Shown: positions 4,701-44,049, counted from the whole stretch's first letter. The stretch is DNA of 48,792 bases, filler included, from Dimargaris cristalligena (GCA_003614675.1; 2 parts of 2 records of this genome joined end to end with filler, not necessarily neighbours in it), one strand, 5' to 3'. Notes: a model not told the origin generated them from the sequence alone. Numbers and translations: made by a program.

Positions 4701-7700
4701 TTAACGGTCATTGGAAGTAACTAGCAATTGAACAGGCGGAATCGTTGGTGTACCATAGCCATCCGTCCGAGCCCTTGGCCCCCCAGTACCACCACCATCC
4801 ACAATTGAAGTTGGAGTATCGCCTACGCCCAAAATATCCGTGACAATAGTTGCACCCGACGTGGAACGCGATGACGTTTCAAGCGACTCATGGCTAATCC
4901 CGCCAACGTGACTAGCGCCGCTGTCGGTTTTATTCGTGGCCATCGCATTGGGCACGGGGAAGACCAGGCCCATTCGATGGGTGGGTAGGACAGTGTTGGG
5001 TGTCGCTGCAGGTTCTATACGCTCGGCTGTCGCTCCATCCGTACCTCCTGGTGGCCGGGCCAGGGTGGGGGTGTGTGGATACTCGAGGGACGACAAACTC
5101 GCGGAGGTAAACGATGTGGGATTCGGCCAGTAGTGGCTACCGTGGTCATTCATATCGCCATATGCTCCCCCGCTCCGTTTAACTGTCGCCGTCGCCCCAT
5201 CCATTTTCGGAGCAGGCGTTTCCGGTATCGAGACGGGTTCGGAGTCGTTCGAATAGCGGGGCTTTTTAGTGTAAATATTCATCATGAGTTGGGCCACCTG
5301 TTCGTGTTGCTCGAGCTGTTCGCGTTGTTGCCGCATGAGCGACTGGAACTGGGCCACTGTCTGTTTTTCCCGGGCGAGGTCCACGGAAAGGGATTCCAGC
5401 TAGGTAAGAAGAAAGACGGTAAACACGCCGAAACCGATTATATTGATTAGTGGGACAGAGGTTGATGCTTAATACGGCACTGTGTAGCCAATGGAGCGAA
5501 TTGCTAAAGCAAAAAATTAAATGGGATGCGTAACAAGCGATTTACTCACCTCCTCCTTTTGGCCGCTAAACCGGTGCTGCAGTTTATTGTTTTCGTCACG
5601 GGCCTGCTGGTTGTCATAGTTGAGCTCTACGATTTCATTCCCCTGTGCTTCTATTTTTCCCTTTAGCTCGGCCACTTGGTCACAAGCTATTAGCATAATT
5701 GTACATATTATTAACATATGTATATAAAGAAAAGGACCAGAGTTAGCCGGAGGCAAATAACGGAGCAGGTGATATCATTGGTGTAAGGCCAAAATAAACA
5801 TTGCTACAAATAATGAAGCCAAACAAACTTACCGTCGTTTAGCCGCGCTTCCAAAGAGGGAATTCGGTCGACCTGTTCGCGAAGTCTGATGAATTCAATG
5901 GTTTGGAATAAATTCGTAAAATGTATATAAAATACGACGCCTAAGCTTCATAATCAAATAATACTTGGGTAATTTTGACCCTTCTTTCGTATGACACCCT
6001 TTACCATTAACAATATAGTGCAATTTCCCGTTATCCGTAGGGGTTTTTTTAAATACATATCTCGGACCCTTACTTTTTGTTTTCGGTGGTCAGTGTCCTG
6101 TGGTCTTTGGTCATTCGCTCTAGTCGAGATTCGGCTGTGTTCAACTGTTCAGTCTTGGTTCGCAGTTGACGAACAACTTTGTTCCACCTAAAAAATAAAA
6201 CAGTATAACCAAAGCAACATACATCTTGACAAGATGATTAAATGAAGCAAAGCACGATTAAGCGGCCAGTGGGAACGATCATTTCTCAGATAGTGTGACA
6301 GTAAAAAGTACATTAGTATGTATTAAACCTGGTGCTCACTACCGGTTGACTATTCCAGAATTCACTCATTTTAGCGTACCTTTCCTCGCGCATAGCCACA
6401 TCCTCCTGGAAAATCTGGATTTCCTGTTTCAGGTCGCTCACGAAGGCCTTAAGTTCACCCATTTCCCCGTTTTTATTTTGCAGCCGGCTAGTTAGCTCGT
6501 CCACGTCACGGGACAGCACTTTACTCTCCGTCTGGCATTCCTTAGCGGTGCGTTCGAGCTCCCGGGCCTCCACTTGGAGCTCTTCGTTGGTCCGGGTGGT
6601 ATCACGTAGCTGGATTTGGAGGGTTGTCACTTGGGCTGTAAGTCGGCCGTTCTCCTGTTCCAGAAAATCAGACTAGTGTGAGGGAATATATACAACAATG
6701 AACACGTGATATGTATAAATGATCAATACGGGGCACAGGGGAAGTATATTTTACAATTGCTGGGCAACATTGTTCTAATTGTAGAAAGTGTTAAAAATAA
6801 ACGTGTATTGCAATATACCTTTTGTTGATGGGATTCCTCAATCGATAATTTAGCGTGTAGGGTTTCATTCAGTCTCTCAATCTCCTGATCGCACAAAACA
6901 TAGTAGTTGTAGAAACAAAAGAAAATGAAAGGTTGGTAATTATCCCCCCAATGAGAAAAAAAAGTAGTGGAAAAATGAATCAGTAAAACTGGATGTAGTC
7001 GCAAAGAATGTGGTGGCCGAGGCATTTGTAACAACTGGTGGGTCTATTATTATTATTAATTACGAATAATCAAGGAAAGGCGTTTGGCTACTTACCTGAT
7101 CCTGCTGATTAGACTCTGAAGAGTGGATGAATCGACAGTAGAAAATGCAGGGTATACAATGCATGCATTAGACCACTATGTCGTCCCAAAAATTAAACAA
7201 TCGCAAGCCCACGTATGTCATGTATTCCCTATTATATGTGGTATTTACCTTGTAGAAAATGGTCGGCAGTCTGTAGTAGTAGTATCCTGTGGTGATGGGT
7301 GATGCGAGACATGTACCTATAGGGTGGGAAATAATCCCGAAATAGATTTTAGATATTAATGAGTAAAATGGCCAAGAGACGCCATAGTGGGATTGCCAAT
7401 AGCCATTCCTAATTAAAATACCCGGTCGGGCGCATCCCAGGGAACGCCTGGGTTAAAGGTTCATCTTACCTGTTATAGAATGGACCGGAGACCTGGGCCA
7501 TATTACATAGTAGCGGATGGGTGGCCAGGTCCGTAGACCGAATTGCCGCCAGTGCAAGTACATCGCAAACCGTTGGCGAAGTGTCCATGGGGGGGTGGGT
7601 GGTATGTGAGCGCTGCTGCAGTCAACCGATACATTGGTTGTCGAATGGCCAAATATCAATAGTATATCCATTAGACCACCATGGCTAATATACCGGAGGC

Positions 7701-10566
7701 ACTCGTATAGTAATAGTGCCGGGTATGAAAGGGAATCCGACATAAACCGCCATATTCCTACAGTAAAAAGCTACACGGCAATAATGTTATAGAGAGTCAT
7801 TCAAAGGCCCTAGTCATTTATGTTCTCATAAAGAGCAACCGAATCACTTACGAGAGAGGACACCGTGGAAGAGCCAAAGGACTGAAGCCACAGCGCTACG
7901 GTCAGGCTAGAAATCTGGGCACAGGTTACAGTGGCCACGGGATCCGAGTTTATCGGCTGGTTCAAAGTACTGTACAATTTCTGCAGTTGGCTGTAGGCGA
8001 AATTAGGCTGCTGCGCTTCGAGAAGGCGATTTAATTCGTGCTGTTGTAGATGGAGAATGGCCTGTTGGCCACAATGGGTCCGTGAAAATTGGGCTGCAAA
8101 GAAGTAGAGTACGGTGGAGTATTGTTAAGGCAGCAGAAATAATAATAATAATAATAATAATGTGTATACTTAAGTGGCGTCGAATAGACCGTTTCATAGA
8201 ATGGAGCATGTTTAATCCCGACAAAAGTTTGAGCAGTGATAGAAGAGATTCCCTAATTTAATTAGCCCAGTTGGTATCGCGGTAGTTGAAGCACGCGCAC
8301 TTACTTATAAACGAATTCAGTTGTTTAAACAGGGCCAGTACAATCTGTGATTCGGCAAAATCGCCCAGTCGGTCGATTTGAAGAATCAAAGCCATGCCAA
8401 CCATATCCGCAAGTACTTGCTGAAGCTTTTCGAGACTAAGGCGAGGCCATAAAAGATAAATGAATGGATAAAATTACATGGGCCATTGCAGTATCAAAGT
8501 GCGAGATTAATTATCATTTCAAGGGCGTCGGTTCTACTTGAGCTAGTAAAGCATAGTTTTCACCAAAATGCACAGCCACCGTAATGTACGGGAATATTTT
8601 CACGCACGTACCTCTCGTTGTTTTCTAGTTGGATCCGGGCAACGGCCATAAGAAAGGGAAAGAGGTGGGGATACTCATGAGGGGCCCACCATTCGTCAAT
8701 CTCACTATCTGGCCGATCACTGACTAGCGTGGAAATAGACCCACTGCTTATATTCATGAGTGATGCTTGGTTGGGGTCATTGGCAATAGAGCGTAGAAAC
8801 CGCTCCATGGAGCTGGAGGCCTGGGCCACAATGTCGAACTCATCAATCAAGTCGATGATTTCATTAAGGTTGATTCGGTGTTCGAGCAGGATGGATAGTA
8901 GGTAGTATATCTAGGGAAAATACGCGCCGGACAATGGTAAATGAAGGCAAAAATCAATGAGGAGGTAATAGTTACTAGATATATTATGTAAAAAAGGTGG
9001 CTGAGGTAAGTCGAATCCCGGAATAGAATTGCCACCGTGCAGAAAGTGGCCAGCCAAAGTAAGTCCGCTATTAAAGTTGATACCAGCCGAACAGGCATAT
9101 GGACTGGGCAGTCTTCTTACCTCATCGTAACGCTCGTGCTCTTTCCACTGGTGTTCAAGGGTGAGGCGGACGGCCTTGATGAGGGAGGGGTGATCCGCTA
9201 TAACCGATTGCATATCGCGGTGGTTCAATAGTCCGTAGACCAAGTCGATGGCGACCCGTAAATCCTCCTCGGAGTCGGTGCGACCAACGATATGGAAGAT
9301 GAGGCGCCACGTTTCACGATTGTTGGTGGCGTTGAAGATTTTACCGCTCAGGGCGGGGTCGTGGGTGAGTAGCAAATGTAAGCTGAGGAGGGCCAGTACG
9401 GTGGTGGAGGAATCGGGTTGGCCAATGTGGGTGAGGAGGGCTTTATAAAAGCGGGCGGCCCGGGGGTGCTGTTGAACCACCCGGGCAACCGCGGCGCAGT
9501 GGCCAGCCAGCTGGACCAGGGTGCGGTGGTAATGTAGGGAGGGTTCCGTGGGATCGTCGCTAGAATCCTCGAGCCGACTAGGCGGGGGATTGGACTCGTC
9601 GCTGTCGTTTTTATTATCGTCGTCTTCGGGCCGGCCAGCGAGTGTAGCGCCGGCCAGGGTTCGGTCCATGCAATAATGAATGAAGGCCCGCTGGGCCGAC
9701 GACTGGCCGGCAAAATGGGCGCCGGCGGGGGGAGTGGTCATTAACTGGAGCAATTGCAGGAATTGGCACTGCAGCATATCGTCCATGGATTCACCATGGT
9801 GGACGATATAATGACATAAGGGATCCACATAAGGGCTGATCACAGTGCCGATGGGATCGCGGAATAAGGTAGATACCACGGGGCTGCTCAGAATAGCCAA
9901 GGCATAGTTGGTGAGGGGTCGATCGCCAACGAGGGATGCGGGGCGTTGCGGATAAATGGAATGCCCCGTGGTGGGTAGGAGGAGAATATCAAAGAGGCGG
10001 GCTAGCCACCGGCCTTCGCCGGGATGGGCGGGTTCCGGAATAGCAGGGGCCGTTGGGTTAGACGCGGCCGGGGCGGGCGAAGAGAACCATTGGGAGGGCG
10101 AGACGTGGCTGATGTAGCGGGCAACGTAGGCGTCGTCGAGAAGGGTTAGCAGGGTCTGGGTAGGTATGTGGTGTGGATATATACGGGTATTATACGAGAT
10201 AAATGCGTAGCCATGGTGGGTAGGGGGAAGACAAGGTATGAGAAGAGGTTAGGCGTATTCAATGGTGGGGGTGTGGTGTGTGGTACAGAGCATATAGCCA
10301 GAGAGAGGAGAGTGGCGTGCTTCCACCCCCCTCGTTAGCAGCTAGGTGGCGCAGTCAGGTCCAGAGGTGGCCTTCGTGCCGCAATGCATTGGCTCCCGTC
10401 GAACTGGACAACCTAGCCAGTCGCTGGACGAGTAAACTCACTGGGTTGGGGACTGTACCTGGAGGAGGCCGGGTAGCTGGGCCTGCTGGTCGTCGGCCAG
10501 CCGCTCGAGAGTGTCAAGCAGCTGGAAAAACTGCCGTAGAGTATGGTAGGGGGAGTCGGCTAACAT
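4701..10566 (-). CDS. CIP2A-like: CIP2A-like protein (ARM-type N-terminus + coiled coil + disordered tail), 14 exons, ~1136 aa
   Basis: Phase-consistent GT-AG exons: 10566-10459, 10155-9121, 8910-8612, 8435-8305, 8093-7852, 7615-7470, 7316-7249, 7115-7096, 6884-6819, 6672-6380, 6187-6074, 5885-5833, 5686-5550, 5399-4701. Segment LVQLAGHCAAV...RFYKALLTHIG...TTVLALLSL...GKIFNATNNRETWRLIFHIV...RVAIDLVYGLL matches recalled human CIP2A LANLCRHNLSV...SFYRTLITLLA...VVVFALSIL...[20 protein letters not shown]...KYSVDLLMDLL. Coiled-coil end QLEQHEQVAQLMMNI resembles ELNKHSHMIAMIHSL. Boundaries of the middle exons are less certain. Confidence 0.8.
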
Positions 10567-11257
10567 GAGCAGGACTAGGAGGGGTAAACAAGACGAAAGC
10601 TAAGCTGAAGGGATAAAACGGCGCAGTACGGAGAAGAAAAGGGAGGCGGGCAGTTGGCTTAAAGTAGAGGTGGGCAATGGGTCCATCCTTGTCCTGTTAT
10701 GCGACACTTTCGCTAACGAACCCTAAAGAGCGAGTGAGAGAGAGCTGCCTTGGGCATACAAAGACGGTTGATGACTGATCTTTGTGAGGGGTCTGCAGCA
10801 GTGTGCTCGAAGCTCCGGTAATCCTAGCTTACTAAATGGGACAAGGTAAAAGAGCCCCAGGGCGGTGGGACATTAAATTTCCTGGTGAACAGCGGGGCTT
10901 AAATTTAACCTTGGCTATTCACTTTAATGATTCAGGCCGCTTCCCTTTCAATTGGACCAGCTGAAAAAAAATAAAAGAATAACAAAAACTAACGCCCAGT
11001 GCCTGACCTGGCTTGTTTATGAATATAATCTCTCCCTGCTCTCCTCAGCCTCCGAATCCAACCGCCATTCCTTCGACAGCCATCCCAAACTATATACCTT
11101 GTCTTGATTGTATTATCGCTTTCCGAGCAGTTCCCTTTACTTATATTTCCTTCGTCCGTATCTAGGCCAACCTCGTCTGTATATTAAAGAGGGGGAGTTC
11201 CTAAGCCTCACCTCACCGCACCCCACTCCGCACAAACTCCCTCTGGGCTTCCATACC

Positions 11258-14200
11258 ATGCTGGGTGAATCCTCTGCTCTTTTCCCTGAGGAAGCCACGG
11301 CCGCGGTTCCATCGTCACCCGCCCTGTTCCTAGATTCCTCCGGACCAGGTGACTACAATTCACCGCTGGCCACCACCTGTCCGCCCGATATGCTGATGGC
11401 CGATACCACTATATGCATACCCTCCGCTGCCAAAGCCCCCGCAGCACCTGAGTTCCCCCCGACCGACCCCAACGAGCCCGGGATTTTCGTTTCCGAAAAC
11501 TGCCCCTCCCCAACGAAGCCAGCCGGGACCTACTCCGATACTCTCATTGCCTCCCTTTCCGAAGAAGGCAGCCCCCCCGCCGACATGACTACCCCGACCA
11601 CTGTTAGCGGCGATATACCCTCGGCCCCAGAAATGGACCTGAGTCTGAACCTGAACCCGAGTCTGGACCTAGCCCAGGCCAAGGCAAAGGCCGACCGTCG
11701 GAAAACCTGTGACATTCGCATTCCGGAGGAGTGGGCCATGCAGTTCGATGAGCCCTCCGAAACAACCCTAGGCGGAGCCCATTTGGCTCGCTCTCCTTCC
11801 GCGCCGGAACCCGTCGAGGCGGCCCACCTGCCCAAGCCAAACCCGAACCCGGAATCCGAAGACCGGGCGATGGACCTGGGGAGTAGCACCGAGCCCAGCC
11901 CGCTGCTGGAGGACCAGGCCGATTCCGACGTATCCGTGGACGAGGGGGAAATTAGGCCGTTTAATCGTCGGAAATCCCAAGTCCGGTTTTCCCTGGCCCC
12001 CGCCACCGTGCATACATTCGGGGCCGAGACTGATGAGTCGGACCATGGCCATGGTGACGATGAAATCGACGGCAACCGCCAGACCAGTGTCCCTGGTCTT
12101 ATCGAGCATTCTACTTTCAATGAAACCGCAAACGGACATGCCAACCACGAGGTAAAGCAGTCGCCGCATGACCGCACCCCAACACCTGACCTGCTCGACC
12201 TATCTGCCACCCCACCGCCGAACTCACCACCCGCTCCCGCCCCCGCTACCACTGTTACCGACATGGTCAGTATCGCTCCACCGGTTTCGAGGGAGGATCA
12301 GCCGCCCATGGACAACCCCTCCTCCCCTATTAATACAATGATGGATGCGGACCCCACCTCCCCAGTGAATACCACCCCCGCTCCTGTTCCTGCTTCCGCT
12401 CCAGCCCCTGCCCCGGCGTCCCCTCCCTCCCCTTCCCTCCTCATACCCATCACGCCTCGTACCATACAAACCGCCATTTCCATCCCTCTACCCGAATCGC
12501 CCACCCCTCTACCCAAGGGCGAAGACGTATCCCCGGCCGGCTCCAACAAGTCCGTCAACGAGCGCGACCACTCCGAGGACGACGACCACGTTACCGAGGA
12601 CCTGCTCTACAAAACCCCCCGGAAACAGGCTCGCACCGCCTACGTGCTCAGCCCCACCTTTTCCAACGCTCTTCTCCACGCCACGCCTGAAGAACAGGCC
12701 GCCATCCATGATACCCTGTTGGGTTCAGCTAAGCGCATCGAGGCCCAGTCTACCCATTTGATACCCTACTCCACGGCCCATCCGCTATCCCACACTGCTG
12801 ACCACCCCGGTTCCGAAGCAACGTCGGCCGACTCCCAGTATGAGGAAACCCCCCTCATCTTATTCCAAACCCCGGCCCCGGCTAGAATCCGCGCCAATTT
12901 CGTTCGCCAGTTGCCCAACGACACTCTAATCTCCACTATTCTAAGCCAGGACAACAACATGGACGCCGACCCCTCCACTACCAGCAATGGAGGAGATGCC
13001 GCAATTCAAGCAGTAGCCACCCATCCGAATAATTTCTCTGACCTCTTGGCCCGTACGCCGGCCTCCAGTCGCGAGGTTGTCAGCTCACGTCCGTCCGGTC
13101 GCAGCGCCAATGCCAATGCCAATAAGTACTATCCACCCTCGTGGCTTATCCCCGTTACGCCGGCCCCGACCCTGCTGGACACTGTACGCAATGACTTTGT
13201 TTCGCCCGATAAGATCCCTAAATACAGCTACATCGAAATGGAGGAAATCAAACGCCAGTTTGGTATCAAGGTAGGCACATTGGTTGAATTGGTATATACA
13301 TAGCATTGCACAGAAAATGGGGGACCTCGAATACGGACAGGCCCACTCTTTGAGAACTTCATCCAACGCGTATATATATCCCCCCCTCCTAAAGCAACTC
13401 CTCGTTTGTAAAAACCCCGGTTATCCAATCTCCGCATCTATCGCTGCTACACTGTTGTCCAAAACCACTAGGTCCGGGTAAAAGAAGAAGCCCATCAGAA
13501 AGCCTTAGACGAAGTCAAGCAGCAGCTAGAGCACGAGCGAAGGGAAAAGTCGGAAATCAACGATGTGCTAAACGAGTACGCAGAAACCATGTCTAATTTT
13601 GTGGGTAAGTTCCTCGCTAACCGACCCGCATTACTCGCACTAGTTTTACTAATCTCCTAATACAATCCCAGCCCAAACCAGGGAGGAGGAGGGCAGTTGT
13701 TATTTCCATCTTGTACTATCCCTGGCGAGTTGGCCAAACCAATTTGTACTTATCCGATTTCCTGCCACTTCTTTTATCAAATGTATGTCTATTAGAAACA
13801 TCCCAAGCGGCTGAAAAGGAGTACAATGAGAATATGCTCCGAATGGAGTCGCAAAAGGACGTTCTCAAGGACACCATAGAGGGGATGCAGCAGACCCAGA
13901 ACCAGATGGCCCAACGGTATGAAGAACTGCAGGCCGAATCCAACAAGCAAACTCAGGTAAGGGCATGCCTTCATTATATTTATCATATCCTCCCTTTTGC
14001 TCCAAAAATGTTCTGCTTTACTCCAACTCTCAGCGCTCTCAGAAATCTCGAAAATCATGGGCTCTTGAATCTTATACATCGCAACACCCCCATCGCTAAC
14101 AATCTTTAACTTTGTTTTTCTTTTGTAACCATGTATATATATATATATATTCCAACCTGCGATATTTACCCTATTCACAGGCCAATGGCAACCTACTAAC

Positions 14201-24358: not shown

Positions 24359-24458
24359 NNNNNNNNNNNNNNNNNNNNNNNNNNNNNNNNNNNNNNNNNN
24401 NNTTAATTAATTAANNNNNNNNNNNNNNNNNNNNNNNNNNNNNNNNNNNNNNNNNNNN
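24359..24458. other. Artificial 100-bp assembly linker (N44-TTAATTAATTAA-N44)
   Basis: Symmetric N runs flank TTAATTAATTAA (24403-24414), which places stop codons in all six frames. Confidence 0.97.
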
Positions 24459-24609: not shown

Positions 24610-26414
24610 TCCATGAAACCGTTGGTCTGATCGATGGTGGCACCTCGACTAAGATGACCGTCAATTACAATCTGGTAAGTATAGCAAATTCACCGAATTA
24701 GGCTAGGCGCCTCCTTCCAACAGCTCTCCAGAGCCATTCCATACTTCACTTGATCCCCGCATATTCCTCCAATACCCACTAACTCTTATTCCCCATCTAC
24801 AACTAAATACTCACACTTTATTACCATTGGATGAATGTCCATTAGTTTGGCGGTACATTGATCAAACTGGGTACTGAACGTCACCGTCACCTTATCCCCG
24901 AAGTGGATAGCCTGGAATCAACGGGCTGTTTTGGCTTAACCGAATTGGGCTACGGCAATAACGCCATTGAGATGGAGACCACCGCCACTTACGACCAGGC
25001 CACCCAAGAATTCATTATCCACAGTCCATCGACCAAAAGCCAGAAGTTCTGGATCACCAATGGTGCCATCCACGCCAAGTACTGCATCGTCTTTGCCCAG
25101 ACCCTTGTCGCTGGCAAGAACGAAGGCATCCACGCCTTCCTGGTCCCCATCCGGGACCGTGATCTGCGGGTATGTCCCGGGGTCACCATCCGTGACATGG
25201 GTCGTAAGCAGGACCTGGACGGGGTTGACAACGCCCTCCTGGCCTTCAACCACGTGCGTATACCCCGGGTCAATCTCCTCAACCGCCATTCCGAGGTCCA
25301 CCCGGACGGCAGTTTCACCTCAACCATTGAAGGTCGCCGCAACCGTTTCATTCGAGTGGCCGACCAACTGCTCAGTGGTCGTATTTGCATTGCTTCCATG
25401 ACCATGGCCTCTGCCAAGGGTGGCCTCACCGTAGCCCTGCGCTACGCGGCTACTCGCCAGACCGTCGGCCCTGCGGGTAAATCGAATGCGCCCATCCTGA
25501 GCTACCAGCTCCAGCAGCGGGCCTTGATCCCACTGTTGACCCGCTTGATTGCCCTCAACTTTGGCCTCAACCACACCAAGCGGGTCTGGATGAGCCCCGA
25601 ATCCGACCAGGCCGAGGTGGTGCGACTCTGCTGTGTCATCAAGCCTCTGATTACCTGGCATGTTGAGCGAGTGGGAACCATCTGCCGTGAGCGCTGTGGT
25701 GGTCAGGGCTACCTGCGCTGCTCTCGCCTATCCTCCGTCATCGGGTTTGGACACGCGGGTATCACTGCTGAAGGAGACAACTCCGTGCTGATGCAGAAGG
25801 TCGCCAAAGAACTGCTCAACGACGTTCAGCGCGGCAACTATAAACTTACACCGCCCGCCAATCGCAGTACCCCGCCCAGCGGTTGGAGCCTGGACAGCCT
25901 GGACAGCATGGTCGACTACAATCGCCTGCGTCTGATCGATCTGGTCCAAGAGTTGGGCAATAACCTGCGTACCAAAATGGCCGCTGGCCAGACCCTGTTT
26001 GACGTCTGGATGTACGAGGAATCTGATACCATTCAGGCCCTGTCCAAGACCTTCGGGGAACTAATCTCTTTGGAGCAAATGGTCAAGGCCGTTCGTAGCC
26101 CATCCCTCAGCGAGCCCACTCGGAAAGTCCTCCAGGATATTTGTTACCTGTATGCCCTTACTTTGATTGAGACCGACCTGGCTTGGTATACCTACCAGAG
26201 CTACATCACTCCCGCCAACGCCCGGACGGTGAGCCCCCGCGTTCGTCAGGGAGTTGCCCAACTGGCCCCGCAGGCCCTGCATATCGTGGAGGCGTTTGAT
26301 ATCCCTGATGAACTACTCGCGGCCCCCATCGCCCTGGACTGGGAGCGATTCAACGAGTATGACAACCAGGGCGAAATTGTAGTGACTGCTGAAAGCCTCC
26401 CGGCGAAGCTGTAG
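24610..26414 (+). CDS. ACOX: Peroxisomal acyl-CoA oxidase, exons 2-3 (24610-24674, 24846-26414)
   Basis: [34 protein letters not shown]; motifs [50 protein letters not shown]-terminal PTS1 AKL. Confidence 0.95.
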
Positions 26415-31432: not shown

Positions 31433-31505
31433 GGGCTCGACCGGGATTCGAACCCGGGCCACGTGCACCCAAAGCACGTATGTTAAACCTCTACACTATC
31501 GAGCC
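31433..31505 (-). tRNA. tRNA-Pro (anticodon TGG), intronless
   Basis: GGCTCGA acceptor stem pairs with TCGAGCC; anticodon arm CGTGC-TTTGGGT-GCACG; T-arm CCGGG-TTCGAAT-CCCGG; downstream T-rich terminator. Confidence 0.95.
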
Positions 31506-34077: not shown

Positions 34078-36397
34078 ATGCGGTTCGGCTCCTACTTCAC
34101 CAAGGCCACCATGGCCCTCACCATCTTCGGTCTGACCTCCTTGGTCATGGCCGATAAGCCCGCTAATGACAAAGAAGCCTACGGTACCGGTAAGTATTCC
34201 CCCCTTCCCTAGCCCATCTACCCAAGGCTGCTTCTCATCTGCGCATCTAGCCTGCCCACGTACCGCCGCCGCGCTTTTGGCGGGATGGAAACCCTCCTGG
34301 GTGTTGGCGTTCTCTTCTTAGACTGTGGACGATTTGTCCTGCTTCTTGAAAAAGAGATGGGTCCCTCCGCTGGCTGCCCACTCATCCGCTGCTTAAAGCT
34401 GAGAGTACCTTCCCTCTTCCTCGCCTCCACCCGTGTCCAGTTACTAATCCGGCCCCCCTGTTTATCACCACTATGATTTTCTCTGGATAATCCCTCTCCA
34501 ATCAGTCATCGGTATCGATCTGGGTACCACCTACTCTTGCGTGGGTGTCCACAAGGGTGGACAGGTCGAAATTATTGCCAATGACCAAGGTAACCGCATC
34601 ATGCCCTCGTATGTCAGTTTCACCGACTCTGAGCGTTTGATTGGTGAGGCCGCCAAGAATTTGATCGCCTCCAACCCCAAGAACACCGTTTTCGACGCCA
34701 AGCGTCTGATCGGTCACCGCTTCAAGGACCCCGAAGTCCAAGCCGACATGAAGCACTGGCCCTTTGACGTGATCAACAAGGATGGCAAGCCCGTCGTTCA
34801 GGTGGAGGTCAAGGGCGAAAAGAAGCAATTCACCCCCGAGGAAATCTCCGCCATGGTGCTCGGTAAGATGAGGGATACCGCCGAGGCCTACCTGGGTGTG
34901 AAGGTCACCCACGCCGTGGTCACCGTGCCTGCCTACTTCAACGACGCCCAGCGTCAGGCCACCAAGGATGCTGGTACCATTGCCGGTCTTAATGTGCTCC
35001 GTATCATCAATGAGCCCACCGCCGCTGCCATTGCCTACGGTCTGGACAAGAAGGGTGGTGAACGTCACATTCTCGTTTTCGATCTGGGTGGTGGTACCTT
35101 CGATGTGTCCCTCCTCTCCATCGACGATGGTGTGTTCGAGGTTCTGGCCACTGCTGGTGACACCCATCTGGGTGGTGAAGATTTCGATAACCGTCTCATC
35201 AAGTACTTCAGCAAGATCTGGAACAAGAAGACTGGTAAGAAGGTCGGTGAGAACCTCAAGTCCCTCGGTAAGTTGAAGCGCGAGGTTGAAAAGGCCAAGC
35301 GTACTCTGTCCTCGGCCGACTCCGTCCGTGTCGAAATCGAATCCTTCCAGGACGGTGAGGACTTCTCCGAGACCCTAACCCGGGCCAAGTTCGAGGACAT
35401 CAACAACGATCTCTTCCGCAAGACCCTGCAGCCCGTCAAGCAGGTCATCAAGGACTCCGGTCTCAAGAAGGAGGAAGTCAACGACATTGTGCTGGTCGGT
35501 GGTTCCACTCGTATCCCCAAGGTCGTCGAGCTTATCGAATCCTTCTTCGGTAAGAAGGCCTCCAAGGGCATCAACCCCGACGAAGCCGTCGCCTACGGTG
35601 CCGCCGTCCAGGGTGGTATCCTGACTGGTGAAGAGAACACCCAGGGCCTGCTTCTGCTCGACGTCAACCCCCTGACCCTCGGTATTGAAACCACCGGTGG
35701 TGTGATGGCCAAGCTGATCAAGCGTAACTCCGTGGTCCCCACCAAGAAGTCCCAGATCTTCTCCACTGCTGCCGACAACCAGCCCATCGTCCTCATCCAG
35801 GTCTACGAAGGTGAACGTGCCATGACCAAGGACAACAACATGCTTGGCAAGTTCGAACTGACCAGCATCCCCCCCGCTCCCCGTGGTGTCCCCCAGATTG
35901 AAGTGACCTTCGAAATCGACGTTGACGGTATCCTGAAGGTGTCCGCCGCCGATAAGGGAACCGGCAAGTCTGAGTCCATCACCATCACCAACAACAAGGG
36001 CCGTCTGTCCGAGGAAGATATCGAGCGCATGGTCCAGGAGGCCGAGCAGTACGCCGATGAGGACCGTCTGTTCAAGGAGCGCATCGAGGCCCAGAACGGT
36101 TTCGAAGCCTACATCTACTCCATCAAGAACCAGGTCACCGACAAGGACGGTCTGGGTGGTAAGATCGAGGAAGAGGAGAAGAAGACCATCCTGGACGCCA
36201 TCAAGGAGAAGACCGAATGGCTCGCCGACAACGTCGCCACCGCCACCAAGGACGATATTGACGAACAGAAGAGCGAGCTGGAGGCTATTGTCAGCCCCAT
36301 CGTCAGCAAGCTCTACGGCGAAAGCGGTGCCGGTGCTGGCCCCGCTGCCGATGACGACGAGGAGGACTTCGGTGCCCGCGACCACGACGAACTTTAA
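34078..36397 (+). CDS. KAR2: ER Hsp70 chaperone BiP/Kar2 (exons 34078-34189, 34506-36397; ~667 aa)
   Basis: Exon 1 encodes signal peptide [25 protein letters not shown]; spliced sequence [16 protein letters not shown]; Hsp70 motifs TVPAYFND and [11 protein letters not shown]-terminal HDEL; strong C-ending codon bias. Confidence 0.98.
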
Positions 36398-37247: not shown

Positions 37248-40013
37248 CTAAGCTGTCGAATTCCACATTTTCCGCCAAACTAACCGAGCGCCCAGAACGC
37301 GTACGGTCCCCATCAATACAATCACAAACCAGACTCCGATCATAACGAGTAAGAGAGGAATTTCACCCTGAAGCATACGAATGTACTTATCGATTAGCTT
37401 CCCGATTAGTCCCCCCGTGTAGCCGCCACTAACGTCGGCCCGGCGGAGATCCGCATCCGTATAGGGACGGTAGTGCTGAAGGGTATTGCCCAAGATGGCC
37501 ATCAATTGCCCTGCCTGAGTATTCCTAGGGGGTTCCGACGGTGTTGTGGTAGTGGTGGTGGCTTTGGCTGTGGCTGCGGTGGTTGGGCGGGCAAACCAGG
37601 CCTCGATTCCCGTGGGTGATGTCGGCCGGTGAGTTATACGGTAGAGCAGGCCCTTCACCTCAGTCGTGGAAGTTGCGGCCTCCATAATGCCCTCCATGAC
37701 CTGCGAAATCGCATCAATTTGGGTGATGGTGGTGGTGGTATCATCGTCGCGGCGTGAGAGGCTGACTGGGGTTGGTGTATTCGGGAACTCGTGGAGCGTT
37801 GTTGAAGAAGGTACCCGCTGAGCCGAATTAGTCGGAGTGGGCATGGACAGGGAATTGTCTGGCCCAGTGGGTTGGACTGCCTCCTCCCCTAAATTAATGG
37901 AGATAGCATTGTGGAAGTATTGGTCATCCGGCAGGGCCCCGTCCCGCCGGTAGAGCCCCTCGGGAACGTACACTGTGGCTGGCTGACGGGCCTCCCAGAC
38001 CGAAGCCACGGCGCTGGCGGGGGTTTTGTTCAGGTAGGCCTCAACGGCCAGTGCCCCCAGTCGGTTGGTGTCCTTCTCCGACAGGTAGGTCGAGTTCGCC
38101 AGGAGGCCGTGCACGTCTTGCATGGTCCCGACGTACTGGCCCACCAAAGCATCCACAAAGTCCTCCATGGTACGGTTCAACGGCTCCACACCGACTACCA
38201 ATGCATTAGGGTCCACCCGCGGTAGGGTAACGTTGGCGGCATCGTTGATATACGTAAAGAGTTTCCCGATGGCCTGAATTTTCTTGATGAAAGCGCAATT
38301 GACAAAGTCCATAGCGGCCGACTCAAAGGGCGTGTTGTTGAAAATATCACCCACCACGGTGCGCGTATCGTTGATGATAATATCGAGTGAGCTATTGAGG
38401 GCCCCGGTGCCTTTCTTAATGGGCCCAAAAATATCCTCATTGACGGTGAATTCCATGGCTGCCAGTTGTCGGTTAATTCCACCGGCAAAGTCGTTAGACA
38501 CCCGAGTCAAATCCTGGGTCATATTGCCCACGACATGGGACCTGAACGTGTTGAGCGAGTGGGCGGCCTCGGGGGTATACTTTTCACGAAGTTGGTTGAT
38601 ACTTCTAATTTGGTTGGCGATAACCAGTAAACCCAGGATGCCGGAGGCTAGGCAGGCCAAACTGGGAATGTGGTATACGTACTGCATCCACCAACGGACT
38701 AAATGGGCCTTTTCAACGTTACTATACCGCTTATGAACGCGTTCATTTAAACTGTAGAGCCAGGGTTGAGCGATACCCGTATGGATATCCTGCATTTGGA
38801 TTTCGTGAACGCTCTGCCCTGGTCCACCAGGCGGCGGTGGGTGAAGCGGGTGGCGACTGCGAATGAAGGTCATGAGTTGCTGGTGTTCCCGACGAATCCG
38901 GGCCATGTTAAGTAAGATGAGGGCGACGGCAATACCCACCAGTACGCCCACCCCAATCAGGAAGATCATTCGGGTCGCTTGGGCCAGGCCATCCACTAGC
39001 GCCGCACCGGTTTGGGGATCGCAGAAGTTGGCCTGGGCGGCCTCCGGTACCCCAACTAGACTGGCGTTCACCTTGATACGACTGAAGCCGCTCCGTATAG
39101 TGGATTTGAGATTTTCGAATGGTTTGCGAAGCAGGTCGATCAGCTGGGCTTCAACATCCGCCAGTTTGGGGACTTTCTTCGTGGCCTCGTCCAGGTCCGT
39201 ATTCATTTGGTCGGGAATCTGGACCGTCCAACTGGAAGTATCGGGGTAGCTGATACTCGGGATGGTACGGGAATTACCGGAAACGAGGTCAAATAACGAA
39301 TTGCTGCCATCGACAATTTTATTGGCCCAGCCGACGACGTCGGTCACCTGGGACTGGATACCCTTAATAGTAGAATTCATGGCGGTATTGAAGGAAGATT
39401 GGAGATCGGCCATCCCCGCCTTGAACAAACTCAGCCCCCCCTGGATCACCAGATCCGCAACGCACAACTGGAAGGCCCGAAAAGCGGAAATAAGAAAAAC
39501 GATAATCTCCTCCAGGAGAGTGACGGCCAGCACGAGGCCATCGGCGGTTCGGTTGACGACCGCCAGGGCCGCCTTATTGACAATTTCATTCGTTTCCTCG
39601 GCGGCCTTTTGCGGGAGACTGAGCAGCGTGTTGCCTACCCGTTCCACCGATTGGCAACTGCGGAGGAAGTCGTCTTTAGTGTCCTGGCCGAACCGGTCGA
39701 CCTCCACGCTGTGGAGGTACAGGCGGACCGCGTAAAAGAGAATTATAATGATAAGGTAGGTGGCCCAGGCCCGGCTAAGTTTGGCATTCAGGCCCAAATA
39801 GGGCGAGAAAATGGTGCCGGTCGGCCCCGCTTGGCTTTTCTCGGGCGGGTGGTCTAGGTACATGAAATTGGGGGAGCCGTTGCCCAGGTTGATACTCATC
39901 ACCCTGTTGGGGTCGCTTAAATCGATGAAGTTGGATTCTCGAGAGGATAAGGACACGGGCTGAAACTGACGGCCTATCCGACGTTGGTAGGGAGGGGTAG
40001 ATTCGGTGGCCAT
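37248..40013 (-). CDS. PRM1: Plasma-membrane fusion protein Prm1 (921 aa, intronless)
   Basis: SPYLGLNAKLSRAWATYLIIIIL matches the Prm1 PYLGLxARLSxxW motif; conserved Cys (SCQSVE, LCVADL, NFCD, VNCAFIKKI); multiple TM segments; HIPSLACLASGILG. Confidence 0.9.
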   Translation of the reverse strand: MATESTPPYQRRIGRQFQPVSLSSRESNFIDLSDPNRVMSINLGNGSPNFMYLDHPPEKSQAGPTGTIFSPYLGLNAKLSRAWATYLIIIILFYAVRLYLHSVEVDRFGQDTKDDFLRSCQSVERVGNTLLSLPQKAAEETNEIVNKAALAVVNRTADGLVLAVTLLEEIIVFLISAFRAFQLCVADLVIQGGLSLFKAGMADLQSSFNTAMNSTIKGIQSQVTDVVGWANKIVDGSNSLFDLVSGNSRTIPSISYPDTSSWTVQIPDQMNTDLDEATKKVPKLADVEAQLIDLLRKPFENLKSTIRSGFSRIKVNASLVGVPEAAQANFCDPQTGAALVDGLAQATRMIFLIGVGVLVGIAVALILLNMARIRREHQQLMTFIRSRHPLHPPPPGGPGQSVHEIQMQDIHTGIAQPWLYSLNERVHKRYSNVEKAHLVRWWMQYVYHIPSLACLASGILGLLVIANQIRSINQLREKYTPEAAHSLNTFRSHVVGNMTQDLTRVSNDFAGGINRQLAAMEFTVNEDIFGPIKKGTGALNSSLDIIINDTRTVVGDIFNNTPFESAAMDFVNCAFIKKIQAIGKLFTYINDAANVTLPRVDPNALVVGVEPLNRTMEDFVDALVGQYVGTMQDVHGLLANSTYLSEKDTNRLGALAVEAYLNKTPASAVASVWEARQPATVYVPEGLYRRDGALPDDQYFHNAISINLGEEAVQPTGPDNSLSMPTPTNSAQRVPSSTTLHEFPNTPTPVSLSRRDDDTTTTITQIDAISQVMEGIMEAATSTTEVKGLLYRITHRPTSPTGIEAWFARPTTAATAKATTTTTTPSEPPRNTQAGQLMAILGNTLQHYRPYTDADLRRADVSGGYTGGLIGKLIDKYIRMLQGEIPLLLVMIGVWFVIVLMGTVRVLGARLVWRKMWNSTA

Positions 40014-42096
40014 TTCGTAAAAGGTATATACAGGTTGGTACTGCCTTACAGATAGTATTGTGGATTGGAAAAAAATTACTGGATATTTTTAAGTGCGTTT
40101 AGAAGGGAAGAGTAGTACGTTCAACGTCAGAGCTTCAATAATTTTACTAAAAGAATGATCAGGTTCAATAGCATACAGACTATGAAACAAGTATGGCTAC
40201 AAAATAGATTGAATATATACAACGATGGCAAAACAAACTTAGGTATGGTAATTTTAAACCTAATTGACGCTATTCCAGGTTAGGGGAGAATATAACATAT
40301 AAATGGCAAATAAAAGGAGGAGCAGCTAATTTGACTATGAGAGGAGGGGAGTGGAGGGCGTACTTGAAGAAAAGGGGCCCACTCATCACTATATATATAT
40401 ATAAATATATCGACTAGTAATGAAGGTGGTGTAAAGGGACTACCGGAAACGAGAATGGCTCTGTGTGATGGACAACCCATCCTTCAGTGACGGCTGCTCC
40501 ATGGCAGTAGCTAAAGTAAGGCAATAGGGGAAGCGCCTCCAGCTCATTTACAAAGACCATTACATCTCGTCTGATTATAGGTCCAGTGTGAAACGAACCA
40601 GCAGGCAAGCCCACATAAACAGACAAAGCACTAGTCCCGAACTGCTTATATATAATACCTATTTTATTTCGGTTTTTATATATATATATTTTACTTATTA
40701 GCCCAAGAAGAGATCTATTCTTTGGCAATTTTTATAAAGGGGACAATCATGATGACTGTAGCAGCTGCCCAAATAGAGCGAGTATCTCAATCGAATGTGG
40801 CATTGAATATTAGGCCACTGTCGGACAATATAAAGAGACGGATGGTCAGTTGGGTAAAGATAATCACTCTGTACAATGAAGGGAGGGGGTTGGGTATGCA
40901 AGCCTTGCCGGAGATGTGGCGGACGAGGTGGTTTCCAAGTCCATCGAATATCGCCATCGACCGTAGAGCCGCTTTACTATTTTTAGACACTGCGGGAAGA
41001 GGCAATTTGAACTAAATAGCACAAGACATTGTACATGGGTTAGCGACCAGTATCCGTTTTTCAGTTAATTCAAAGCGGACTTTCAAGTAGGAAGGCCGTC
41101 CTCCATCAACCGGATTAGGGATTTACCCGACCTTCTCAATTTAATAGCAGTCGAACTACTGGCTCTTGCAGCTATATTCACATGGTACCCTATTATTCAA
41201 GTTCAATAGCTGATGTCTGGTGACCTCAGTTGTTCAGAGCGGGCGCTGGCTTATACATGTAAAGTTGCTAGATTCGCATACTCTCTATTATAAAATGGGG
41301 GTACAGTGCAAATACACATGCCGAGTTAGTGGACGTATCCGTTTGAAGATTTCGGGATCCAGGTTGGATTGGCCTTAGGCAACCGCGGCCAGAACAAGGC
41401 GAAATCGATCGTCTTAGCGTTGACGTCGCCCTAAAGGTGCATTGGTGATTCTTTACTTCCCGTAGATCATAATTCGATGGTGATACTCGCAAGTTAGCCA
41501 TTGGTATATGCAAGCTTCCTTGAAAAAATAGACTTTGGTGCACAAGAAAAAACATTTTTCGAGAATTTACCCATCGGCCTCTTATCTATTACGCATACCT
41601 TTTACTGCGCTGTTTACCCACATCCTAGAGCTATTTTAGTGGATATCTGAAAGCAAACACATATAACTGCCTACGACTGAGAGGAAGATAATAGGCATTT
41701 ACTTCTTAGAGGGCGGGTATCGGTGGAAAACACGAGAGCTTAGAGCTGGGCTCCGCTCGTCAGCCTTTTAAAACCAGCCTGATGTGACTAATCTTAGGGA
41801 GGGAAGGCTTTCGTATTGACTTGATGCAAAATAGATTAGTTGGGGATACCTATTCCCAATAATCCGTACTAGTTTAATGATTGACTTCGTTCTCTTTAAT
41901 CATCCTCGACCCTGCTGAAACTGCTTCGCCTCTGCATTGCTATAGCGGAGTTTGGCAGTGATGCCATCAGGCTTGTGTAGCCGGGAGGGTTGGTATAAAG
42001 AGCACTCGCGCGAAGTAGCCGTGGAAAGTGACCGACTCCCTTCTCACCCGATACCCATTATATTCACCCTGAACACCCTCAGTCATTTTGTTCGCC

Positions 42097-44049
42097 ATGT
42101 ATCTCACAATGACCTTTCACTTTGTGCTATTTGCCCTATTCTATGCGATTGTCAGTCACCTGGCCTTCTGTAGCAGTTTTGAACCCATTACGCCATTTAG
42201 TCCGATTTTACCTTCGACATTTTCCCTGGTTCCTGCCGAAGTTGGTCATTTAACCCCCGTAGCTGCCACCAGCAGAGACGACCCTCAATTGGCCACGGCC
42301 CTCTCCTATTTTGCCCAGTTTTTAAATATCACTGCCGAACAGGTGCAGCTTCAGGACCGCCAGGTAACGGCGGACACGGGAGTCCACCACCTACACTTCC
42401 AGCGAGTCCAAAGTGGGGTGTTATTGGCCAATGCTTTTATCAACGTAAACATTGGGCCCGGCCCCACGGTTCTTTCAGTGGGTCAAACTACGCTAGCCGA
42501 GCAAACGACCACTCTTAACCCCCCCGCCAGGTTCCAAGCGGACCCCCACTCCGCCCTCGACTACCTTGCCCCCTATTTGCCGCAGCACTGGGCCAATCTC
42601 TCCGCCATACCGCTCACGGTGCAGCCGAAAGGCGACAAAGTGAGTGGAAACGATGGCGGCCCAACATATATTTATGAATTACCCAATGGACCAATTGTGC
42701 GAGTAGGGGAGCGGTATCTGGCTCTGACGGTTAATCAACTGGTCAAAGTCTGGTGGGTCAATGTCCGTTTAGAGCCCCAGTGGCTAACCTTTTACTTCGC
42801 CCAGAGTTCGGGTGAGTTAGTAGCCGTGGCGGACTGGACCCGGGCCGCCTGCTACGACATTTTCCCCTGGCCTCTCGATAACCCCAACGAAGGGAACCGT
42901 CAGCTGGTGTGTGACCCTTGGCTACCTGCCACCTCCCCCAAGGGCTGGCAGCATCACTATAAATTCGCGGACTACCACACCACCGAAGGTAACAACGTGC
43001 ATGTTCAAATCCACGACACCAGCGTCAATTGGACCGTTTCCCGGCGCCCTGTTGCAAGCGTCAATGCGAATCAGGTCCAGTTCGCCTTCCCCTTAGATCT
43101 GTCCCAGCCACCGGTCCAGTACACCGACGCCGCCTTAACCAACCTGTTCTACCACTGCAACATGATGCACGACCTGCTCTACGTGTACGGTTTTACAGAA
43201 GTCGCAGGCAATTTCCAGGACGATAATTTCGGCCGCGGCGGCCGCGAAGAGGATTCCTTGGTGGCCTATGGGCAGGGCACCAGCTCAATTAACAACGCTT
43301 ACTTTAGCACGCCTCCCGACGGCTCTCACCCGTACATGTACATGTTCCTCTGGAATATGACCGGGCCCAATCGGGATGGGTGCCTGGACCGGTCAGTTGT
43401 TGCGCACGAATATACCCACGGTCTAACCGCTCGACTGACGGGTGGGCCCATCAATGTCTACTGTTTATTATTTGGAGAGGCGGCGGGATTAAGCGAAGGC
43501 TGGAGTGACTGGGTGGCTACGGTATTGCAGGTTCGGCCTTACCCATCCTCCTCCACCGCTGTGTTCATCCCTACCCATCTGGACCAAGTGGTCGTTGTTG
43601 GCGCATATGTAACTGGCAAGCCCACCAAAGGTATCCGAACCCACCCCTACACTACCAACATGGCCACCAATCCAACCACCTATGCATGGCTCAACCGAGC
43701 CAATTACAAGGAAATCCATAGTATGGGCGAGGTTTGGACCCAGATGCTGTACGAGGTGTTCTGGAATTTCGTGGGTCAGCACGGGTTCAATACGAACTGG
43801 TTTAGCGGGGATCCATCGGCCGGCAACACCCTGGCCCTGCAATTGGTCATTGACGCCCTGAAATTACAGCCCTGCTTCCCGGAATTCATCTCGGCCCGTG
43901 ATGCCATACTGCAGGCTGAGAAGCAACGGACCATGGGCACCAATCGCTGTCTGATTTGGAAAGGGTTTGCTAAACGTGGGCTTGGCGAAGGGGCTAAACG
44001 GGAGAATGATACCTACATTGAGAGCTTCCACTTACCCCAGGACTGTTGA
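42097..44049 (+). CDS. Secreted M36 fungalysin metalloprotease
   Basis: Signal peptide; FTP-type propeptide (DTGVHHLHFQRVQSGVLLANAFINVNI); TTEGNNV; YGFTEVAGNFQDDNFGRGG; zinc motif HEYTH; EGWSD; HSMGEVW; LKLQPCFPEFISARDAI. Start is ATG 42097 or 42109. Confidence 0.95.
   Translation: MYLTMTFHFVLFALFYAIVSHLAFCSSFEPITPFSPILPSTFSLVPAEVGHLTPVAATSRDDPQLATALSYFAQFLNITAEQVQLQDRQVTADTGVHHLHFQRVQSGVLLANAFINVNIGPGPTVLSVGQTTLAEQTTTLNPPARFQADPHSALDYLAPYLPQHWANLSAIPLTVQPKGDKVSGNDGGPTYIYELPNGPIVRVGERYLALTVNQLVKVWWVNVRLEPQWLTFYFAQSSGELVAVADWTRAACYDIFPWPLDNPNEGNRQLVCDPWLPATSPKGWQHHYKFADYHTTEGNNVHVQIHDTSVNWTVSRRPVASVNANQVQFAFPLDLSQPPVQYTDAALTNLFYHCNMMHDLLYVYGFTEVAGNFQDDNFGRGGREEDSLVAYGQGTSSINNAYFSTPPDGSHPYMYMFLWNMTGPNRDGCLDRSVVAHEYTHGLTARLTGGPINVYCLLFGEAAGLSEGWSDWVATVLQVRPYPSSSTAVFIPTHLDQVVVVGAYVTGKPTKGIRTHPYTTNMATNPTTYAWLNRANYKEIHSMGEVWTQMLYEVFWNFVGQHGFNTNWFSGDPSAGNTLALQLVIDALKLQPCFPEFISARDAILQAEKQRTMGTNRCLIWKGFAKRGLGEGAKRENDTYIESFHLPQDC

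Follow-up and report, generated by a model that had tools for sequence, protein, structure and literature searches.

We analysed a 48,792-nucleotide (nt) stretch of DNA from Dimargaris cristalligena (GCA_003614675.1), a mycoparasitic fungus of the order Dimargaritales (Kickxellomycota); this whole stretch is referred to below as the window. At positions 4701-10566 it carries an intact, multi-exon gene on the minus strand, with the A of the ATG at 10566 and the stop codon at 4701-4703. The predicted protein combines an armadillo (ARM)-repeat head with a long coiled coil and an extended tail, and we conclude with good confidence that the gene is the D. cristalligena member of the family of CIP2A, a protein that helps hold broken chromosomes together in mitosis. 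The initial annotation had proposed a full-length CIP2A homolog in a fungus with precisely these limits, a proposal borne out by profile, fold and architecture evidence. The parts of the gene are listed below, all on the minus strand (aa, amino acids; AF2, AlphaFold2).

4701..10566, minus strand: whole gene from ATG to stop; 14 exons and 1132 aa in the revised model, 13 exons and 1094 aa in the public one.
10459..10566, minus strand: exon 1, 36 aa, first helices of the head; conserved within Dimargaritales only.
9121..10155, minus strand: exon 2, 345 aa, ARM-repeat head with CIP2A_N homology; three low-confidence loops, including an acidic insert.
9214..9522, minus strand: most conserved block, protein residues 248-350, aligning with 5ufl chain residues 166-268.
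8612..8910, minus strand: exon 3, further ARM repeats; AF2 confidence high to about residue 425.
8305..8435, minus strand: exon 4, helical head with low AF2 confidence.
7852..8093, minus strand: exon 5, helical head with low AF2 confidence.
7470..7615, minus strand: exon 6, end of the head, with an 'IRST..HP' block common to the relatives.
7249..7316, minus strand: exon 7.
7096..7115, minus strand: exon 8, micro-exon of 20 nt, as in the public models.
6819..6884, minus strand: exon 9, 66 nt, phase 0/0, EIERLNETLHAKLSIEESHQQK, start of the coiled coil; absent from both public models.
6380..6672, minus strand: exon 10, coiled coil.
6074..6187, minus strand: exon 11, coiled coil.
5833..5885, minus strand: exon 12, coiled coil.
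5550..5674, minus strand: exon 13, coiled coil; proposed acceptor 5674 versus public 5626, adding 16 residues.
4701..5399, minus strand: exon 14, final coiled-coil heptads, C-terminal motif, tail and stop codon.
5271..5309, minus strand: end-of-coiled-coil motif QHEQVAQLMMNIY, counterpart of the human tetramerisation core 884-892.
4704..5270, minus strand: T/G/P/S-rich tail of ~190 aa, presumably disordered and far longer than in animal CIP2A.

Translation of the 13 exons of the public structure yields 1094 aa, identical to P0012 (RKP36813.1; UniProt A0A4P9ZTG8, 'Uncharacterized protein'). A second record, P0001 (KAJ1982160.1, 'hypothetical protein H4R33_005090', 1094 aa), was retrieved from the public protein collection with the largest open reading frame (ORF) piece as query and differs from the window translation at 1 of 1094 residues. 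Both public models skip an extra 66-nt exon at 6884-6819 that encodes 22 aa. Tblastn with the orthologues from Tieghemiomyces parasiticus (P0002) and Dispira simplex (P0003) finds matches at 6884-6771/6816, which is intron in the public models, and in both alignments inclusion of the exon closes a gap of 22 residues. Moving the acceptor of the next-to-last exon by 48 nt (5626 to 5674) closes a second orthologue gap of 16 residues; the public models probably start this exon 48 nt too late. Both changes are based on conservation and splice signals only, and they make a revised model of 14 exons and 1132 aa, rather than 1094, likely. The 14 exons of the initial annotation are thus a better count than the public 13, because the Tieghemiomyces and Dispira orthologues both match the 66-nt exon. 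We also weighed a minus-strand ORF piece at ~8257-8160 as a further exon but rejected it, since the orthologue alignments run straight through the 8305/8093 junction when it is omitted.

The structure of the locus also bears on whether the gene could be an artefact of annotation or a pseudogene in decay. Both public models do deviate from the conserved exon structure. Against this, all 14 exons are open, all 13 introns of the revised model are GT-AG (133-303 nt), and guanine-cytosine content differs between exons (54.6%) and introns (40.6%). Two strains stand only one residue in 1094 apart, and full-length orthologues occur in two other genera (Tieghemiomyces, Dispira). We therefore regard an artefact or pseudogene as extremely improbable.

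Searches with the ORF of exon 2 alone identified CIP2A_N (PF21044) in Pfam (E=2.4e-5, 23.6 bits), the sole other row being a TetR family at E=0.08; CIP2A_N is the only ARM/helical-repeat family that this exon matched in the scan. Among all PDB sequences, its sole significant match was human CIP2A (5ufl_A, E=4.5e-5; query 243-346 versus chain 166-268), and the whole protein gave the same outcome in Pfam and PDB. The initial annotation had likened exon 2 to the CIP2A ARM domain, and the CIP2A_N match indeed lies there, at residues 248-350 (window 9522-9214). The precomputed Pfam list for P0001 holds PF21044.5 together with PF27605.1; the latter appeared in none of the Pfam scans made here.

Profiles built from relatives gave far stronger matches. 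A three-sequence Dimargaritales profile matched 5ufl_A at E=5e-10, with the next matches being coiled-coil proteins at E of at least 1.7e-3, and an eight-sequence profile matched chain residues 19-305 at E=4.2e-29; these profile searches yielded no other ARM family. An exhaustive phmmer search of residues 1-605 against 1.84 billion representatives returned eight proteins at E<=1e-3. Besides the query and the Dimargaritales orthologues from Tieghemiomyces and Dispira, they comprise one protein each from the chytrids Rhizoclosmatium hyalinum and Chytridiales sp. JEL 0842, one from Jimgerdemannia flammicorona and two unnamed Logan proteins; an Endogone protein was added to the set after this search. 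Six of the seven phmmer relatives besides the query match CIP2A_N at E<=0.01, five of them above the gathering score. In alignment A2, 9 of 10 members match CIP2A_N, and every other family matches at most one. Comparison of the Dimargaritales with the Endogonales, chytrid and unnamed relatives by hhalign gave a probability of 99.45% (E=4.7e-22, 166 columns). Chance is excluded because, of 2100 shuffled sequences, not one was matched at E<=10, whereas six of seven real non-Dimargaritales relatives were. With the fungal protein as query (one direction only), the best Pfam family, PDB chain and named Atlas cluster are all CIP2A.

Structure prediction agrees with the sequence profiles. The AF2 model of exon 2 alone (predicted local distance difference test, pLDDT, 73.8; predicted template modelling score 0.73) was compared by VIA-align with 48,161 PDB chains, and 5ufl_B ranked first, with Z 19.9 and a root-mean-square deviation (rmsd) of 3.0 Å over 243 residues at 18% identity. 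The runners-up were Syo1 (Z 14.0), WAPL (13.1) and the p115 head 3gq2_A (12.9, rank 4). Foldseek placed 5ufl_B and 5ufl_A at ranks 1-2 for the same model, the only two matches at E<=1e-3. A longer AF2 model of residues 1-605 had a mean pLDDT of 66.9, with ~90 for residues 239-425. On these models, the fungal head is predicted to adopt the CIP2A ARM-repeat structure.

The p115 entry in these lists raises the question of whether the gene belongs to another family of ARM-head and coiled-coil tethers, such as Uso1/p115, with the CIP2A match reflecting generic repeat similarity. Uso1/p115, an elongated homodimer, likewise has a long coiled coil behind an ARM-type head, so that the overall architecture is the same; its clusters score 0.88-0.90 in Atlas, where architecture alone can drive feature scores, and its head also occurs in the Foldseek list (rank 7, E=3.6e-2). 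However, the p115 head falls 7 Z units below CIP2A in VIA-align, and a sequence-profile match is lacking altogether: Uso1_p115_head (PF04869) and Uso1_p115_C match neither exon 2 (E<=1) nor the whole protein or 10 family members (E<=0.01), and PDB sequence searches with the head or the whole protein returned no p115 chain. Zoopagomycota, moreover, possess their own Uso1 cluster in Atlas. A better match to Uso1/p115, the outcome that the initial annotation had named as decisive against its proposal, thus did not occur, and we consider such an origin very unlikely.

Downstream of the head, high heptad scores define a coiled coil of ~265 aa (about residues 680-945 of the revised model), with one proline in ~300 residues and a proline-free stretch at residues 651-849. 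The ORF at 6313-6672 matched 56 coiled-coil Pfam families, in agreement with coiled-coil matches in PDB. The account of human CIP2A in PMC12765896 gives residues 1-617 as a globular domain, 618-876 as a coiled coil and 877-905 as a conserved C-terminus. The rods are similar in length, since the human coiled coil spans 618-876 and the fungal one ~680-945.

The coiled coil ends in a motif, QHEQVAQLMMNIY, that is conserved in six of the seven longest relatives examined (Dimargaris, Tieghemiomyces, Dispira, Jimgerdemannia, Endogone and the unnamed P0008); the exception is P0007, a partial protein from Rhizoclosmatium, whose matched stretch shows only loose similarity. At the position of human MIAMIHSLS, P0008 has IATMIHNLS, the human string being as quoted in bioRxiv 10.64898/2026.08.22.746418, and the CIP2A-like terminal helix named in the initial annotation holds against that quotation. 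In an hhalign comparison of the C-terminal parts, the motif falls in register (93% probability, E=3e-7), although coiled-coil bias inflates such scores. As described in the same preprint, an antiparallel tetramer with human residues 884-892 (MIAMIHSLS) at its core links two 46-nm CIP2A dimers and is required for mitotic repair; L891 is critical there, and L891I is the one tolerated change. Aligned via P0008, the Dimargaris residue at the L891 position is Ile. Four-copy homo-oligomer prediction for residues 837-925 scored 0.20 and 0.13 against a mark of 0.32, which is evidence neither way, and a PDB search with the C-terminal 60 residues found nothing relevant, the best entry being eL20 at E=1.5.

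Beyond this motif the family members diverge. The tail comprises ~190 residues in Dimargaris, ~100 in Tieghemiomyces and ~25 in Dispira, versus 13 in human CIP2A. The tails of Tieghemiomyces and Dimargaris are otherwise unalignable, except that near the end of the latter (window 4704-4790, minus strand) R-T-D-G-Y-G-T-P-T aligns with the Tieghemiomyces C-terminal R-E-D-E-F-G-Q-P-T; this string near the C-terminus may be a short linear motif. According to bioRxiv 10.64898/2026.08.22.746418, invertebrate CIP2A proteins (C. elegans B0432.7, Drosophila, octopus, ant) likewise have strongly diverging tails and retain the long parallel coiled coil with its short tetramerising end. The fungal proteins fit this pattern of a variable tail behind a retained coiled coil and short end.

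Set beside human CIP2A (KIAA1524; 5UFL covers residues 1-560), the Dimargaris protein therefore shares the ARM head, with its sequence match over 19-305, a coiled coil of ~260 residues and a hydrophobic motif at the coiled-coil end. It differs in a core identity of only ~15-29% and in three inserted low-confidence head loops, one of them acidic. Other fungal members include the Jimgerdemannia flammicorona (RUS31352.1/A0A433QNJ0) and Endogone sp. (RUS18618.1) proteins, which share family, architecture and the end motif QH[ED]x[IV]A...Y.KK. They pass the Pfam threshold (78 bits) and have an automatic name, neither of which holds for the Dimargaris protein, and their post-motif tails measure ~10-20 residues rather than ~190.

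Judged from these sequence matches, members of the family occur in Kickxellomycota, Mucoromycota (Endogonales) and Chytridiomycota at the least. Its occurrence outside animals is already implicit in databases: in UniProt, the protein from Jimgerdemannia bears the automatic name 'CIP2A N-terminal domain-containing protein', and InterPro contains oomycete entries. The preprint alignment (bioRxiv 10.64898/2026.08.22.746418) combined an EggNOG 'Opisthokonta' group with 86 InterPro entries from oomycetes and describes homologues 'across metazoa'; neither 'fungi' nor 'fungal' appears in its main text. The literature accessible on CIP2A together with fungi yielded no discussion of a fungal CIP2A homologue, and the preprint supplements (434 homologues) may list fungi. 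The family itself is thus already known, and what is new here is the conservation pattern, the three-phylum span and the gene-model correction.

In Atlas, the full-length protein has its highest feature scores with three unnamed clusters of ~1050-1068 aa (0.94-0.95), slightly above an arthropod CIP2A cluster. The phylum is known for 2-4 of the 59-60 members of each of these clusters, mostly Ascomycota. They may represent unrecognised, diverged CIP2A-like proteins in Dikarya; if they are homologous, the description 'lost in Dikarya' is wrong.

The surroundings of the gene fit a fungal chromosome, with Pfam families in 3 of the 12 long ORFs scanned (acyl-CoA oxidase, Hsp70 and fungalysin M36). 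The assigned neighbours are as follows.

24846-26414, plus strand: acyl-CoA oxidase.
31433-31505, minus strand: tRNA-Pro(TGG).
34448-36397, plus strand: Hsp70, cytosolic-type, single exon.
42073-44049, plus strand: fungalysin M36 metalloprotease.

A stop-free frame of 731 aa, rich in P/S/T/A and without a Pfam family, lies at 11108-13303 on the plus strand; it and the CIP2A-like gene point away from each other, with at least ~600 bp of intergenic DNA between them. The E2F motif TTTSSCGC occurs twice in the window versus 5.4 expected, and not near the promoter of the CIP2A-like gene. Another stop-free frame of 946 aa (37248-40088, minus strand) has no Pfam family at E<=1e-3, and two runs of 44 N (24359-24402 and 24415-24458) mark a scaffold gap.

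Several observations weigh against membership of the CIP2A family or against a function like that of the human protein. The single Dimargaris sequence scores 21.7-23.6 bits, under the Pfam gathering score of 26.3, the Tieghemiomyces orthologue has no Pfam match (that of Dispira passes with 28.9 bits), and similarity to human CIP2A is detectable only for about chain residues 19-305 of 560. The AF2 alignment was shallow (10 rows), confidence is low beyond residue 425, and 5UFL (2017) is presumably within the AF2 training data. In the 605-residue model, CIP2A only ties generic ARM proteins by Z (15.2 versus 15.8-15.1), with an rmsd that is lowest by far (3.6 Å over 334 residues versus 6.3-7.5 Å), and Foldseek ranks it 2-3, behind Vac8. 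Animal CIP2A lacks the ~190-aa T/G/P/S-rich extension that follows the motif. To our knowledge, yeast Dpb11 is without the CIP2A-binding region of TOPBP1, the mitotic partner of human CIP2A. The TOPBP1 segments that bind CIP2A are described as conserved in vertebrates in the review PMC10566317. For B56 binding, human CIP2A needs an N-terminal stretch of ~40 residues that PMC9974998 describes as conserved 'from humans to lancelet'; three residues within it, K8, K21 and A24, have no confident counterpart in Dimargaris.

Part of this evidence would suit a true CIP2A homologue whose function has diverged, namely a lineage-specific scaffold of ARM head and coiled coil, perhaps regulating PP2A-B56 or located at the spindle pole body, that does not act with TOPBP1 on damaged DNA in mitosis. 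The low identity (~25-30%) limited to the core block, the long tail and the vertebrate conservation ascribed to the TOPBP1 segments all favour it, as do the centrosomal and PP2A roles that accounts of human CIP2A also describe. The timing logic of human cells, in which nuclear export and nuclear envelope breakdown are described as setting the CIP2A-TOPBP1 encounter, need not apply in fungi with closed mitosis. Yet the best conserved elements are the predicted TOPBP1-binding head region and the terminal tetramerisation motif, both needed for human mitotic repair, whereas the B56-binding head is the non-conserved part. We judge such a divergence of function to be rather unlikely.

The conservation pattern also bears on a possible TOPBP1-linked role. 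The review PMC10566317 predicts TOPBP1 contact at human CIP2A residues 150-270, and reported experiments map TOPBP1 binding to the CIP2A ARM core (10.1101/2021.02.08.430060, PMC9288427). The best conserved block of the fungal head (~human 150-305) overlaps this predicted region. By analogy with the human protein, fungal CIP2A would form a long parallel coiled-coil dimer, and dimers would pair tail-to-tail into a dumbbell-shaped tetramer. The conserved head face (~human 150-305) might then bind the fungal TOPBP1 orthologue (Dpb11/Rad4/Cut5 type), and the assembly could bridge or organise damaged or under-replicated DNA in nuclear division. A TOPBP1-linked mechanism of this kind in the fungus is tentative, and we place it slightly short of an even chance.

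The N-terminus shows the opposite pattern. The first ~40 residues align weakly in the eight-sequence profile, and exon 1 is conserved only within Dimargaritales. PP2A inhibition was probably not the ancestral job of the family, because the B56-inhibiting head (human 1-40) is not detectably conserved. The conservation pattern suggests genome stability as the ancestral role and favours a genome-stability scaffold over a PP2A inhibitor.

As a real, full-length fungal relative of CIP2A, the gene makes the family older than the split between animals and fungi. A more far-reaching reconstruction is doubtful: the animal-fungus ancestor may have possessed the complete scaffold (TOPBP1-facing ARM surface, ~260-residue rod and tetramerising helix), which would serve fungi with closed mitosis as a DNA-lesion tether, with the PP2A-B56 head a later animal addition and, perhaps, highly diverged descendants in Ascomycota. 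On this reading the scaffold may be older still if the oomycete entries reflect vertical descent.

CIP2A has been studied almost only in vertebrates, where it is a cancer target and synthetic-lethal with BRCA1/2 loss. At the D. cristalligena locus, the public gene models need correcting, as they lack a conserved exon, and the protein carries no family name. The fungal orthologue marks the ancient parts of the protein, namely the predicted TOPBP1-binding head region, the length of the rod and the oligomerisation motif at its end, and not the B56-binding N-terminus. CIP2A thereby joins the 'animal-like' genes that early-diverging fungi have retained but that yeasts seem to have lost or altered past recognition. 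Chytrids or Mucoromycota may offer simple systems in which to study the CIP2A complex.

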